Of a DNA stretch of 64,000 nucleotides, positions 9,599 to 46,250 are shown piece after piece (within the stretch, counting starts at the first letter, position 1; each line of letters begins with the position of its first letter). This DNA is from Eledone cirrhosa (taxonomy: Eukaryota). The DNA lies in contig OZ024763.1 of the NCBI GenBank assembly GCA_964016885.1, forward strand, positions 1,984,001 through 2,048,000, written 5' to 3'. The notes beneath the pieces are model-generated. The model saw only the letters and a list, made by a program, of their open reading frames with translations, was not told where the DNA came from and made no database searches. The position numbers and the translations under genes were made by a program.

Positions 9599-9662
9599 AT
9601 TTTATCTGAAGAAGGCATGCCATATTTTTAATATGGTATCCCTGAAATATGTATAATGAAAT
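9599..9662 (+). ncRNA. Type I hammerhead ribozyme motif (family H1) in a TA-flanked element, 9527-9795
   Basis: attttat CTGAAGA [agg..atgccatatt ttt aatatggtat..cct] GAAA tatgt ATA^ atgaaat. Confidence 0.7.
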
Positions 9663-10190
9663 AAATATGGTTTTATAAATATAGTTTCCATTTGTTTAAT
9701 ATCGTATATCTACTCCAAAACTTGTTGAGTGCTTTATATCAGTTATAAAATATTTACTCGTTGTAACCCAACAATTTTAAATAAAACTTTTGCATATATA
9801 TATATATATATATTAGTGGGTTCTCTTCTTGCTCACATCTCACTCACGTCGGACGGTCTGAATCTTGATCGCTCATGAAATCCACCCAGCTTATGCTGAC
9901 CGGATAACCATGTTGCATGTTTATTCCTATCTTTGCGTTGCTTTCATCCTTCTATGTTGTTTACTTGTCTCACTCGCTTTACGCGATTTACTTGTGCCAA
10001 TAGCTTTATTTAGCTATTGCTCACACCAACCTGAGGTATATGATTTTTAATGCGATGAAATACCAATGATGGTTGGCAAATCACTGACGAAGGACTATTT
10101 TTATCATATGTAACCCATGTGCAACCACGCAGTATTCTTCTTTCTTCTCATGTTTTATATATATATATATATATATATATATATACATAT

Positions 10191-10246
10191 ATGGCTTTCC
10201 TGATGGTTTCCTTCAAATGAAACAGTTCTAGTCCTGTAGAAGCCAT
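10191..10246 (+). ncRNA. Hammerhead-like motif with variant core
   Basis: atggctttc CTGATGG [short stem II] GAA ACAG ttctagtc CTGT A^ gaagccat; core A9 to G. Confidence 0.5.
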
Positions 10247-10677
10247 TTCTATATTAAATATTTAGACTCTGCTATGTATTGAGTACTTTACTTACTGTGG
10301 TTACCCCTGATTGAACCCGGGATATATACAAACACACACATACATACACACACACACACACATACATATATATATATGTGTGAAAAATTTTGGACCCCAA
10401 TGGCTGAGCTCTTGCCATTTCAACAGCTGGATCCTAACTCAGTTTGGAGCTCAGCTGTCAGAGTCCCAAATTGTTCATATTACCCACTCTACTACCCCAA
10501 GTATTGAATACTCTGGTGAGTAATGGTCTAACTGCTTTTTACTGATTCCGCCAGCACCAACAGTTTTTCAGTTTTGCAAGAGATGTCAACATGAATGGAC
10601 CTATTATTTTTATCTAAAGACATTTTTTCCAATTCCATCCCGCCCGTCCCCTTAATCTATTTTATTTCTCATTCTTT

Positions 10678-10711
10678 CTTCTGATGAAGGGCTACCATCG
10701 AAATGTTAAGA
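10678..10711 (+). ncRNA. Degenerate minimal hammerhead motif
   Basis: CTGATGA agggctaccatc GAAA tgTTA^ aga; weak helices. Confidence 0.4.
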
Positions 10712-11042
10712 CCCTCTTCCTGCTATATCAAGCGTTAACCTAATAGATACCTTCCATATACTGTACCGATTGTGTTGTTATTTCTGTTTACCTTTTACAT
10801 ATATATATATATAGTATTAATTACACACATATAACATTTGCACTATATAACCGCTTATTTTCATGTTGTATTTTAACCTGTATTTTTGATTTTTGATTGT
10901 ACCTTTTAATATGAATGTAATCTCTAAGTGTGTGCTGCCACTCTAAATGCTGTAATGAATGTTGACCCACAATGTTTGCATATGTATCTGTATGTCTCTT
11001 GGGTGAAAAGGAGGTCATATAACTGTCCATTCATTAATAAAT

Positions 11043-11089
11043 TGCTCCGAAGAATCAAAACCTCGGTTTGGAGGAAACAGTTGTAAGCA
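11043..11089 (+). ncRNA. Hammerhead-like motif with variant core
   Basis: tgct CCGAAGA [tcaaaacc tc ggtttgga] GAA ACA gt TGT A^ agca; core U4 to C. Confidence 0.55.
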
Positions 11090-11449
11090 CAAAAATGTTT
11101 TGAACAGTTCTTTGATTCTTATATTTCATATATATATATATATATATATATATATTTCATATATATATATATATATATATATATATATATATATATATAA
11201 ATACACACTTCAACAACATTCTCATAAATATTACCTGTACAGGTAATCAAAGTGTGTATATCACCATCTTATTTCCTGATATGTTCTCCTGTGTTAAGCT
11301 AGGAAACATTTATCTTGATTTTATATCAGACGTCAAAATACATAAGTGAAAAGAAGAACAATAACAATAATATTAACATATATCTTGTATGTCTGTTCGT
11401 TTGTTTCAGTATTATTTATATTTATGTGTGTATTTTTGGATATAGATAT

Positions 11450-42350: not shown

Positions 42351-42490
42351 GTATATATATAATGTAGAAGGTGAGTAATATTGTAGAACAATAAAACTAT
42401 GCATATATCAGATAAGTAGCACTCAACAGTTGGTAGAACTGGAGTATATATTAAAGAAGAAATTAAAATATGGTTAAAGAAGTTCCATAT

Positions 42491-42558
42491 ATTTTATTAT
42501 GCGCATTTCGAAAACAACATCATCCTGGGACAAAAATTGTGTTCTCATCAGATAAAAT
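42491..42558 (-). ncRNA. Type I hammerhead ribozyme motif (H1-related element, 42362-42560)
   Basis: Minus strand: attttat CTGATGA gaac..ttttc GAA AT gcgc AT A^ ataaaat. Confidence 0.8.
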
Positions 42559-45104
42559 AAGGTAACATGATATCAGGCCTGAAAACTCTTGTCAACAGGA
42601 AAATGCAAAGCCTTTATATATATATATATATATATATATATATATAATCACACTCACACACGCTGACACACTCCCCCCACACTCTTCCCCACATAACACA
42701 CTCTCCCTCCAACACACACTCCCACCCTCTCTCTTCAACACCCCCTCCCTCTCTCTCTCCCCCTCTCCCCCACACTCCCCCTCTCTCTCTCCCACACACA
42801 TACTCCCCCCCCACACACACACACTCTCTCCCCCCACACATACTCCCCCCACATACTCCCCCACCCCCCCAAACTATCTCCCCCACATACTCCCCCCACC
42901 TCCCCCCAAACTCCCCCCACATACTCCCCCACACATACTCCCCCCATACTCTCTCTCCCCCACACATACTCCCCCACACATACCCCCCCACACACATACC
43001 CCCCCCACACACACATACTCCCCCCACCCCCACCCCACACCCTGCTGTAAGAAGTCTCCAATCAAAGACACAGAACACAACAACCTACTGGAAATATTCC
43101 AGATAATCTATCTTAAAGTAGATTTTGAATTCTTTAAAAGAAAAATTGATGGAAAACTAGTTTTTATTTTTTGCTGCCATAATTTCAATATTAACTTATA
43201 ATTTATTGATTCTTACAGGCAACACTACCACAATTGGAACATATATATATATATGTGTGTGTGTATTGAATATATATGTGTGTGTATTATATATATATTT
43301 CTGTGTGTGTGTATTATATATATACATATATGTCTGTGTGTGTATTGAATATATATGTGTGTGTATTATATATATATATATATATATATATATATATATA
43401 TATAATACACATATATATTCAATACACACACACAGACATGTATTATATATATATATATATATATATATATATATATCATCATCATTTTACGTGTATATAT
43501 ATATGTGTGTGTATATATACATGTGTATGTGTGAGTATATATACATATGTGTGCATGTATTATATATATGTGTATATACAGTGGTATATATATATATATA
43601 TATATATATATATACAGACAGACAGACATGCATACAGACTCAACACACATATATATATATACACAGACATATATATATATATATGTATATATATGTGTGT
43701 TTATGTATATATACATATATATATATATAAATGTGTGTGTGTATGTATATATGTATACATATAAACATATACATATATATGTGTCTCTATATATGAATGT
43801 ATGTGTATGTATGCTTGTATGTGTTAAACAACCACATATATGTATATTTGTGTGAATGTATGTGTATGTATGTATGTATTATATATATATATATTATATA
43901 TATATATATATATATATATATATATATATATATATTTCCCCCCTTTGTCTTCCTCTTCTTCCATTTTATTCTGCTTCAGTTATTTTTAATTTTAATTTTT
44001 TTCCATTTTTTTTTTATTGTATTCTACTCCAGATTTCGGTGTTTTTTTTTTTTAATTTATCGTTGTTTTGATTGATGGTGGTGGTGGGTAGAGGTGTTGT
44101 GGTTTTGGTGGTGGTCTGTTGTGGTTGTGGTGGTAGTTGTAGTGTTGTTGTTGGAGGTGGTGTTGTTTGTAGTGGTATTGGTAGTGGTGTTGGGGGTGTT
44201 GTGGTGTTGTGTTGTTGGTTTTGGTGATGTTGATGGTCTTTGTTGTGGTAGTGGTGTTGTTGATGGTCTTTGTTGTGGTAGTGGTGTTGTTGTTGTATAT
44301 ATAAATATATATATACATACACACAAACTATAAAATATATATTTATATAAGCACACAATATTCAAACCTTTATTGCAATATCCATATTTAGTGTACAACT
44401 GTCTATAATTGTCTTACTTAGGCCTTCACACAGCAGTATTTATCTCCCCTTTCCTGCCCTCTCCAGAAATAGAACCTAGGTGGAGGCTACAAAAGATATA
44501 AAGACAAGACTTCAATATATATTTCCTGACTGTGGTTCATCAATATTAACTTTCTATTGTTATTATTATTGATATCTTCAATATTGATATTTATATTTAG
44601 GTCTTGTCTGTTATGGATATATTGATCTTTTCATCTGTGTTATTTTGTCTCTCAATCTTGATTTTATTGGCAAGGTCAGTAGAGCAACTGACAGATTGTC
44701 TTGTCTGTTTGTTCCAACTTTCAATACTCTGGGCTCAAACCCTGTCAACAGTGCTGGGCTTACCTATAAGCTAAATAAGCGATAGTTTAGGGTTCATGCA
44801 CCCTCGAATGTGGGGACCTCAGTTTTTAAATATATTTTTATTTTATTGTCAGTTTTTATTCTTTAACACTGACTCATCAACATATATATATATATATATA
44901 TATCAATATATATATATATATATATATATATATATATGCGAGAAAAACCACAAACCCTCCATCTCAATTCTACTTTTGAAAAGCATAAGAACTGTGAAAC
45001 CGGTAAAGGAAACAAATAAATATTCTTAAAAAGACTCCAGTTGCATTTCCGATTTCTTTTCCTTAAAGATATAAGGTAGTTGTGTAGGAGACATGGTGAA
45101 AAGG

Positions 45105-45280
45105 CTCCCAGTCCACACTGTAAATGTGGTTGGTGTTAGGAAGGGCATCCAGCTGTAAAAAAACCTGCCAGAGACACTTTCGTGCGAGCGAGACATGGTC
45201 TCCCGACCATTCCCGCATCAAATGGAACAAAACCGTCTAACCCATGCTAGCGTGGAAGATGGACATTAAATGATGATGAT
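45105..45280 (+). mobile_element. RTE LINE 3' tail fragment
   Basis: ccacactgtaaatgtggttggtgttaggaagggcatccagctgta...(gat)n matches 14320-14607. Confidence 0.8.
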
Positions 45281-45879
45281 ATATATATATATATATATAT
45301 ATAAATATAAATTATCGAGAATCGCATTTCGACCCACAAAATAACGAAAAACAACCTCCGAGATGTGTGGCAAGTGCTCAATGATTCAGATGAACCAGAG
45401 CTATAACAAACGTTAAAGGCCAAACACACTGAGACGATGGTTAAACAATCATCCGCACAACCAAAAAAACGATCAAGTAATTCGGGTCAAACAAATAAAA
45501 AATATCTGTGATTGAAAATTTACCCGGACCCCTGGAAGGTTAGTAAAATCCAGCATTTGGGTTTTGCGACTCCTAAATCAATTACTGTCCGCTTACATAA
45601 ATAATGTTGGGCTTCTGGTAAGATGATTGAACAAGGAAGCCACTTTCTCAACAGGTTTTAGTTCAATATTAATACAAGGACTGACTATTACTGACCCCAC
45701 GTGGGGATCGGCAAGTATATATGTATACATAGATACACACATATATATGTATATATATATATAATTAAATAATATACATATATATATAATTATATATATA
45801 TTGTTATACTTTGGGAGGGTCATGCTGCCAATAAAAACACATGCATCAGTTGGTTATATATTATCAATAGCATCTAAGT

Positions 45880-46061
45880 ATAATTGTTTCTACTTTAGGC
45901 ACAAGGCCAGCAATTACCCAGTGCATTTCTGGTACTTTATTTTATCGACCCCCGTAAGGATGAAAGGCAAAGTCAACTTCGGCGGGATTTGAACTCAGAT
46001 CGTAAAGGGACGTAACTATGCTGGAAAGCATGGCGTCCGACCCTCTACCGATACTGCCAAT
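45880..46061 (-). mobile_element. SINE family B
   Basis: Near identical to 34174-34354. Confidence 0.85.
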
Positions 46062-46191
46062 GATCTTTTTTCAGCCTTACGTTTCAACCTCATTTACATA
46101 TTCATCCCTAAGGATTTGAAATTTTTCTTTCACTATCCAAACTGAACCTGAACCGATAAGGTCTTGTTTCTTGTTATAAAACAAATTTTGC

Positions 46192-46250
46192 ATTTTATCT
46201 GATGAGGACGTACCGAAATTTTGGTACCCTTGAAATATATATAATAAAAT
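46192..46250 (+). ncRNA. Type I hammerhead motif (family H1)
   Basis: attttat CTGATGA gg..gtacc gaaatttt ggtac..cctt GAA AT atat AT A^ ataaaat. Confidence 0.75.

Follow-up and report, generated by a model that had tools for sequence, protein, structure and literature searches.

Six copies of a hammerhead ribozyme family, designated H1, lie in a stretch of 64 000 nucleotides from Eledone cirrhosa (GenBank assembly GCA_964016885.1, contig OZ024763.1, positions 1 984 001 to 2 048 000 of the forward strand), referred to here as the window and numbered from its first base. A preliminary description of this DNA held that the copies keep one RNA structure while stem II and the helix III loop change in sequence, that the loops are self-complementary, as in ribozymes that cleave as dimers, and that the RNA structure was under selection in active ancestors. 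The locus raises the question of what these hammerheads are and what their structure was kept for. It is quite probable, judging from the sequences, that they are type I hammerheads in elements of 200–270 bp inserted at (TA)n, likely the 5′-truncated 3′ ends of Penelope-like elements (PLEs) resembling those of the Hydra clade, and that they are predicted dimer cutters. The dimer and selection idea is sound but not new, having been in print since 2014. H1 comprises known dimer-type PLE hammerheads, as new family members, together with an apparently undescribed conserved hairpin.

The H1 hammerheads

All six copies were found at the places claimed for them, with a U-rich/A-rich helix I, an AUA cut triplet and the expected helix III:

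9598..9663, + strand: H1a type I hammerhead; core start 9606, last base before predicted cut 9655, helix III AT-ATGT-AT
34603..34657, + strand: H1a hammerhead; helix III AT-ATAT-AT, U-U mismatch at stem II base
37261..37325, − strand: H1a hammerhead; helix III AT-ATGT-AT, last base before predicted cut 37269
41383..41448, − strand: H1b hammerhead; helix III AT-GCGC-AT, core G8A, likely inactive
42490..42559, − strand: H1b hammerhead; intact core, G10.1-C11.1 pair, helix III AT-GCGC-AT
46192..46250, + strand: H1a hammerhead, short form (end +38); helix III AT-ATAT-AT, weakened stem II base

Helix I comprises 7–8 pairs in each copy, with a single C-A mismatch in the 34603 copy. A hammerhead descriptor blind to loop symmetry returned seven motifs in the window at a score of at least 15 and 11 at a score of at least 11, as compared with none and a mean of 0.15, respectively, in 20 local dinucleotide shuffles. 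The six H1 hammerheads are real and above chance. The type I core, which places CUGANGA, GAAA and UH in register with three helices and has its open end at helix I, is intact in five of the six, and self-cleavage is predicted to occur 3′ of H17. An unpaired base between 9 and 10.1 was observed in none of the copies.

The copies form two subfamilies, H1a (9598, 34603, 37261 and 46192; 79–90% alike) and H1b (41383 and 42490; 78%), with 58–68% likeness between them. The described variation in stem II and loop III is thus real, but the copies are not six independent cases; with two subfamilies there are three helix III loop states. A seventh, partial H1b copy is situated in the inverted arm of the foldback at 41345–41644, and its helix III, AT-GCAC-AT, is not self-complementary.

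Matches to the H1 pattern were also obtained in viral contigs (four loci) and metagenome contigs (nine). By eye, none of the 13 had a pairing stem II or a symmetric helix III, and they were rejected as chance matches.

Covariation of stem II and helix I

The register of stem II was set by the catalytic core, not picked afterwards. Outward from the core, the stem contains three pairs, a C-Y mismatch (pair 4) in all six copies, and six further pairs. With pair 4 set aside, 51 of the 54 cells pair; with it included, 51 of 60 pair at a shift of 0, as against 16–34 of 60 at shifts of 1–3. Cognate arms form a mean of 8.5 pairs of nine and arms exchanged across subfamilies 5.4, the cognate total being reached by two of 720 arm permutations. 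In a MAFFT alignment, two-sided changes were found in eight of the nine stem II pairs and two of the four helix III pairs, and the covariation score of 0.537 was reached by none of 500 shuffles. These permutation and shuffle controls involve six sequences and ignore their relatedness. It is apparent that the stem II sequences differ yet stay pairable, as had been described, and that the covariation exceeds what these controls give.

Isolated stem II domains fold better than shuffled sequences in five of the six copies (P ≤0.03; P 0.21 for 42490). Helix I is extended distally by approximately 11–13 pairs in the 9598, 37261 and 34603 copies. Copy 42490 has an extension with another sequence, that of 46192 is weak and that of 41383 is truncated. 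The distal part is less firm, since the 5′ arms of 42490 and 46192 score higher with the 3′ arm of another copy than with their own.

Variation among genomic copies

The H1a copy at 37129..37365 was compared, at 80% likeness, with four public sequencing runs, two of which (X1 and X21) are labelled as one organism. It was matched by 6401 contigs of X1 and 32 091 reads of X21, and by 10 and nine short pieces, mostly less than 90% alike, in the two runs from other organisms. The H1 family is clearly abundant in the genome, read depth not being equivalent to copy number.

The results for read variants refer to the variants listed, 40 of 64. Fourteen of these fall in the hammerhead and none in its 12 core positions. 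Pairing is preserved by a one-sided change in four of the 14 (ATGT to ATAT among them), and another four make up the two sides of two compensatory pairs; of the remaining six, two create additional pairs, three affect the loop and one (37281) would disrupt the first pair of stem II. For the compensatory changes, the shares of the two partners match in the + mates of X21 (52%/46% and 16%/17%). The only helix III variant listed is ATGT/ATAT, with 35–49% ATAT in X1 and in the + mates of X21. Other genomic copies continue past the 5′ end of the 37261 copy, as indicated by loose ends at 37358–37360.

Helix III and predicted dimer cleavage

Self-complementarity of helix III was borne out for ATAT and GCGC, but ATGT achieves it only through tandem U-G/G-U pairs. 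Three further palindromes had been attributed to other families (described below). ACTAGT was found with a full core (15533) and GTAC with a cut-off helix I, but GATC occurs without an intact CUGANGA box.

Counts were restricted to inner helix III positions dispensable to a monomer. In six families or subfamilies, 10 of 11 such pairs are complementary, the chance rate being 0.39 (P 0.0006); the result is 8 of 9 (P 0.003) without the 34372 hammerhead and 6 of 7 (P 0.017) with H1 merged. The GATC and GTAC cases were excluded because they had been found through their symmetry. Palindromy of the loops is, therefore, above chance level across families (P 0.0006 to approximately 0.02). No count includes the possible hammerheads at 10681 and 12143 or the half-core with GATC at 41750, which were unconvincing or had been selected by symmetry.

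By nearest-neighbour energies, the helix III hairpin of a monomer stands at +4.7 kcal/mol, while self-duplexes have values of −3.2 (ATAT), −2.2 (ATGT) and −10.5 kcal/mol (GCGC). The mixed ATAT/ATGT duplex has a value of −3.2 kcal/mol, and H1b/H1a duplexes +5.7 or −0.1 kcal/mol. In an energy model without core contacts, the dimer fold is better than two monomer active folds by 11.6–19.9 kcal/mol. The idea that hammerheads with a short palindromic helix III would act as dimers is sound, and already in print (PMC4209133, PMC6765202). Taken together, the covariation of stem II and the self-complementarity of helix III support the proposal that RNA structure was under selection in the active ancestors.

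The helix III palindrome may also serve as a family code, H1a and H1b pairing with their own kind and hardly with each other; this suggestion is tentative and is made jointly with that of hairpin docking, below. If true, such a code would stop co-resident families from cutting one another’s RNA.

At 41383–42559 (− strand), two H1b copies carry matching GCGC palindromes; were a read-through RNA made, cleavage of the 41383 site by the intact core of 42490 would in principle be possible.

Extents and ends of the H1 elements

The elements in which the hammerheads reside were delimited as follows:

9527..9793, + strand: H1a element, long form, between (TA)n runs
34504..34704, + strand: H1a element, short form, end at about +52, without tail hairpin
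37129..37365, − strand: H1a element, long form; the stretch compared with public reads
41345..41644, both strands: H1b foldback insertion of a short copy (−) and an inverted, 5′-truncated long copy (+); arms identical at 72 of 76 positions, tail on one end
41477..41644, + strand: partial H1b copy, of which the part 5′ of a point within stem II is missing; helix III AT-GCAC-AT
42362..42614, − strand: H1b element, long form

All six H1 copies run into (TA)n on their 3′ side. Measured from the cut site, short 3′ ends lie at +38, +45 and +52 and long ones at +136, +138, +138 and +140; further ends were found in the reads at +41, +46 and +53. The end at +136 to +140 is common to all long copies despite the limited likeness of H1a and H1b. 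The 5′ extents vary, reaching 51, 63, 81 and 110 nt before the core. Foldbacks are frequent, with 11 near inverted self-matches listed and arms 93–99% identical in the four measured, and most have extra sequence (a tail) on one end only. Inverted truncated copies with one-sided tails of 30–40 bp are described as the PLE pattern (PMC8557442); 5′-truncated copies, inverted partners and one-sided tails are all present in the window. Head-to-tail tandems of H1 were observed neither in the window nor among the 15 of 31 read joints listed.

Additional small H1a 3′ fragments are situated at 9408–9483 (+) and 10153–10182. The former and the 9527 copy immediately downstream share one orientation and are separated by a (TA)n run. 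At 34360–34704, the 34372 (−) and 34603 (+) elements, of different families, stand back to back round one (TA)n run, and both start with a common 14 bases containing one mismatch.

The H1b tails at 41511–41642 (+) and 42362–42493 (−) align without gaps over 150 nt and have in common an open frame of 44 codons, without a start codon; differences between the two copies are uneven by codon position (P 0.03–0.05). Coding was rejected because of the many insertions and deletions in H1a reads and because a profile search of 1.84 billion proteins gave only two matches, both repetitive.

A bulged hairpin in the tail

Just past the short 3′ end of H1 lies a bulged hairpin of 20–26 nt, RCUC-stem-U(U/A)-GAGY. 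Comparison of the tails brought it to light as ACTC followed by a short stem-loop, a bulge (TT or TA) and GAGT. A first pattern, based on four families, had eight matches versus a shuffle mean of 0.42 (100 shuffles), and a relaxed one had 12 versus 2.7 (maximum 9), the bulge being of two bases in 10 of the 12; bulges of three and four bases gave one match and none. The strict form, RCTC/GAGY, which was narrowed after matches had been seen, has 10 matches in the window versus 0.18 by chance (maximum 2 in 300 shuffles). Four of these 10 had not been used for the first pattern, and three of the four have (TA)n 65–105 nt downstream, a feature of 33 of 471 RCTC sites (P 0.001). For the strict matches as a whole, a (TA)n run lies 72–100 nt downstream in nine of 10. 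Matches, including one with a one-base bulge, are as follows:

9712..9730, + strand: bulged tail hairpin, +57 from cut
37192..37211, − strand: bulged tail hairpin, +58 from cut
41559..41583, + strand: bulged tail hairpin, UA bulge, +53
42421..42445, − strand: bulged tail hairpin, +53
10186..10365, + strand: degenerate hammerhead (A9 changed), then tail hairpin (10266–10284) at +28
41163..41186, + strand: tail hairpin in a foldback family without a hammerhead; other copy 42207–42230 (−), degenerate copies 14786–14827 (+) and 10478–10519 (+)
60503..60522, + strand: tail hairpin with one-base bulge, just past an arm of foldback 60342–60491
45376..45401, − strand: tail hairpin with a (TA)n run 98 nt away; upstream hammerhead not found
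18352..18376, − strand: hairpin matching the pattern, with neither a (TA)n run within 400 nt nor a hammerhead upstream

At least seven window families possess the hairpin. Its start lies between +53 and +60 for H1a, H1b and the 35084 family, and at +28 for the 10186 element. Short ends are just 5′ of the hairpin, and long ends are 72–100 nt past its start. In an alignment of 11 sites, which were selected for pairing, five of eight pairs change on both sides, including a change from A-U to G-C in the outer stem. Among the listed read variants, five affect the 37192–37211 hairpin, all of them in its inner stem, its loop or the second base of its bulge; the outer stem has none.

Published Hydra consensus sequences (PMC8557442) were inspected by eye. 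The strict hairpin is present in the 3′ ends of Hydra-2_Amil (+44; found through the search term) and Hydra-2_Ajap (+39). Hydra-1_Ajap has a strict hairpin at its 5′ start and a second, similar one upstream of its open reading frame (ORF). Hydra-1_Crog contains a variant (+48), Hydra-1_Amil a weak one, and the Hydra-1_Obim consensus, which ends at approximately +35, none. In all, the strict hairpin was found in three of six published Hydra-clade consensus sequences. A covariance model recovered the 11 training sites, two degenerate copies of a known family and nothing further. No description of the bulged hairpin was found in the literature searched, which mostly excludes subscription papers, among them Lunse et al. 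and Arkhipova et al. 2017; it is apparently an undescribed conserved element.

The hairpin is a candidate signal for the start of PLE reverse transcription. It may tentatively be regarded as a second conserved RNA element of the Hydra clade, besides the hammerhead, shared by elements of coral, sea cucumber and the present genome, and as a docking site for an internal start by the reverse transcriptase (RT), which would explain the tail. The PLE RTs are the closest relatives of telomerase. The one in vitro study to map a PLE RT start to a stem-loop gives no conserved signal (PMC11167929). The hairpin, with its paired changes, is a small concrete target for the question of how these enzymes choose an internal start site, and a handle for placing remnants without ORFs in the Hydra clade.

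A foldback family without a hammerhead, having the tail hairpin and a 72-nt tail, is represented at 41045–41234, 42158–42351, 14729–14865, 60216–60301 and 10378–10560; it was probably cut short before the ribozyme.

Comparison with known systems

H1 resembles the Hydra clade (Craig et al. 2021, PMC8557442), which is reported to have (TA)n targets and canonical hammerheads, in its targets, in a type I hammerhead at the 3′ end and in a self-complementary helix III. Insertion into (TA)n is not specific to Hydra, being shared by Naiad and Neptune elements. The consensus sequences provided end about 35–45 nt past the cut in two Hydra families and further on in others, and three 3′ ends have the bulged hairpin at +39 to +48 (two strict, one variant). 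In File S2 of that paper, by eye, helix III loops are of 1–3 nt in all 25 Hydra families, with U-U at the stem II base in 14 of the 25. In contrast, the stem II domain of H1 is 26–35 nt long (90 in a neighbouring family), as against no more than about 25 in File S2, and in H1 the palindrome is of 8 nt with no unpaired base at its centre, a C-Y mismatch is conserved and helix I is extended distally. The protein hallmarks of the clade (RWK, DKT, a CxCX5C linker, an endonuclease without CCHH) are traits of the ORF, whereas H1 is known from copies without one. The Naiad clade lacks a canonical hammerhead, whereas H1 has complete ones. Identity of H1 with Hydra-1_Obim or Naiad_Obim was rejected, no likeness to their 3′ ends being seen by eye.

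The dimer-type hammerheads of PLE pseudo-LTRs (LTR, long terminal repeat; Cervera and de la Pena 2014, PMC4209133) are reported to have a palindromic helix III, a dimer model, families with compensatory changes and low activity in vitro, and a review (PMC6765202) also covers the palindrome and cleavage as dimers. Lunse et al., as treated in that review, and Forster et al. 1988, as cited, belong to the same literature. Points shared with H1 are the type I form, a short palindromic helix III, a long helix II, the coexistence in one genome of many families that differ by compensatory changes, a predominance of single truncated copies, and opposite-strand pairs 100–700 bp apart. H1 differs in a helix I of 7–8 pairs with a distal helix and in lacking the 9/10.1 bulge and, in most copies, the G10.1-C11.1 pair; both features are absent from many Hydra-clade hammerheads too (PMC8557442).

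From the account of the Poseidon PLE of the green anole (Frangieh et al. 2024, PMC11167929), reverse transcription starts inside the RNA at two sites in a stem-loop, yielding the tail. Likenesses to H1 are two 3′ ends downstream of the hammerhead, an AT-rich target and a stem-loop at the RT start. The two Poseidon starts, however, are tens of bases apart and inside the ORF, and the stem-loop, compared by description only, is called AC-rich. Animal non-LTR retrozymes (PMC7229834; 10.64898/2026.07.22.740005), as reported, resemble H1 in that they are short repeats without coding capacity, carry a type I hammerhead, are present in many copies and are linked to PLEs, but they occur as head-to-tail tandems and circular RNAs, whereas the H1 copies of the window are single or inverted, with ragged 5′ ends.

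Proposed mechanism and alternative explanations

In the mechanism proposed, a tandem transcript of an active ancestor would hold two hammerheads, whose 8-nt self-complementary helix III segments would pair together, each core cutting the partner copy at AUA. Lineages with working ribozymes would retain the fold while stem II and helix III drift. At a nick in the (TA)n target DNA, the RT of the element would start inside the RNA, at approximately +45 or +138 relative to the cut site, and would usually stop early or fold back; the copies in the window would then be single, partly decayed products of internal-start reverse transcription. The hairpin 3′ of the short end would most likely be an RNA handle placing the enzyme at the inner start, as suggested by short ends just 5′ of it and long ends past its start; this is the least supported step.

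Several observations weigh against this scheme. The core of the 41383 copy is broken (G8 to A), and G10.1-C11.1, a hallmark in PMC4209133, is present only in the 42490 copy. The dimer fold lies below twice the minimum-energy fold of the monomer in one of six copies only. No same-strand tandem pair of H1 is closer than 1.1 kb, the distance between 42490 and 41383 (−), and the window contains no active tandem parent. The compensatory partner shares do not match in X1 contigs (32%/2% and 32%/0.8%), and the variant table does not give phase. The strict hairpin is absent from three hammerhead families having sequence 3′ of the cut (15533, 35384 and 36139/35935), and the tails, of 85–145 nt, exceed the published length. 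The anole hammerhead is reported to be dispensable for insertion in vitro and to cut only with protein (PMC11167929). Finally, no ORF for a PLE RT or GIY-YIG was found in the window among 30 long frames and 137 of 141 complexity-filtered frames, the scan omitting four copies of one tandem unit; the link of H1 to an autonomous element is therefore indirect. This absence is expected, since H1 copies extend at most about 130 nt 5′ of the core.

It is unlikely, on balance, that H1 is itself a non-autonomous element, a retrozyme-like or SINE-like (short interspersed nuclear element) monomer of approximately 250 bp borrowing PLE enzymes. Every window copy is short, many related pieces exist in the genome, and retrozymes have been argued to derive from PLE terminal repeats and are often monomers (10.64898/2026.07.22.740005; PMC7229834). 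However, the 5′ ends differ from copy to copy, genomic copies extend beyond the 5′ end of 37261, and head-to-tail tandems were not seen in the window or the joints listed. An improbable alternative makes the symmetry of helix III a by-product of A+T richness, or of CpG decay of ACGT to ATGT and ATAT, in a ribozyme that cuts as a protein-assisted monomer. Those two sequences are what such decay would produce, ATAT is common in the window, the H1a duplex is weak (−2.2 to −3.2 kcal/mol) and the anole hammerhead needs protein. The change from ATAT to GCGC, however, alters all four bases with symmetry kept; decay predicts ACAT as often as ATGT, while only ATGT/ATAT appears among the variants listed, though a rarer ACGT/ACAT variant could be among the other 24; and the monomer helix III is unfavourable, with the cross-family P values as given above. 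CpG decay is not favoured as the source of ATGT/ATAT.

That the paired changes arose by template switching of DNA or cDNA between inverted-repeat arms, without selection on RNA structure, is highly improbable. Foldbacks are indeed frequent, and that at 41345–41644 has its fold point at stem II, but switching would erase mismatches, whereas the C-Y at pair 4 is kept in every copy and the two-base bulge in most relaxed hairpin matches; the invariant unpaired core would also be unexplained. As for the hairpin, it may act at the other end of the RNA rather than in the start of reverse transcription, 30–60 nt from the 5′ end formed by cleavage, in stability, translation or transcription of the next unit. 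The Hydra-1_Ajap consensus begins with the hairpin and has a similar one upstream of its ORF, and PLE promoters are placed in the terminal repeat (PMC6765202). Against this role, short 3′ ends and foldback arm ends of several window families precede the hairpin by distances between a few and about 20 nt, and (TA)n follows nine of the 10 strict matches at 72–100 nt. A tandem transcript would contain the region more than once, so that both roles are possible.

Other hammerhead families in the window

Further families, in addition to H1, are as follows:

15533..15575, + strand: hammerhead with full core, helix III ACTAGT
34372..34446, − strand: hammerhead with 46-nt stem II domain, helix III AT-ATGT-AT
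34763..35168, both strands: foldback whose two arms each contain a hammerhead (cores 35084 + and 34947 −); one-sided tail; the outer pair of the tail hairpin at 34835–34856 (−) is G-C
35384..35467, − strand: hammerhead with 51-nt stem II domain, in foldback 35193–35702; no strict tail hairpin
35727..36200, both strands: foldback with GTAC helix III (36139 +/35935 −) and a stem II domain of 90 nt; helix I is truncated at the fold, the tail is one-sided and a strict hairpin is absent

A U-U at the stem II base is present in 15533, 34372, 35384 and 36139, as well as in the H1 copy at 34603. Long stem II domains (46, 51 and 90 nt) were observed at 34372–34446, 35384–35467 and 35924–36150, and hammerheads with stem II domains of 26–90 nt are probably undercounted by short-stem descriptors. 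The half-core at 41750, within 41680–41960 (− strand), has the GATC palindrome in helix III and a stem II of five pairs, with neither an intact CUGANGA box nor helix I.

Setting of the window

An ORF of 515 codons at 12550–14097 (+) contains an RT domain (Pfam E value 6.5e–33) followed by a PHD finger; it is a piece of a non-LTR retrotransposon, without link to H1. In a scan against Rfam, the matches listed (150 of 299) were microsatellite-driven, of microRNA type and below the gathering score, and included no hammerhead family.

The G+C content of the window is 35%, and microsatellites, satellites and dispersed repeats are abundant. Young tandem arrays are situated at 37827–39959, 54244–56378, 24665–26134, 21830–24505 and 2471–3084, with units of 47, approximately 72, 102, 30/60 and 61 bases, respectively; two of the five are interrupted by short (TA)n runs. 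An assembly gap of 200 N lies at 26939–27138. At least two abundant SINE-like dispersed families are present (34169–34350, 45880–46061, 58614–58804, 36960–37110, 48087–48305 and others), one of which directly adjoins the 34372 and 46192 elements.

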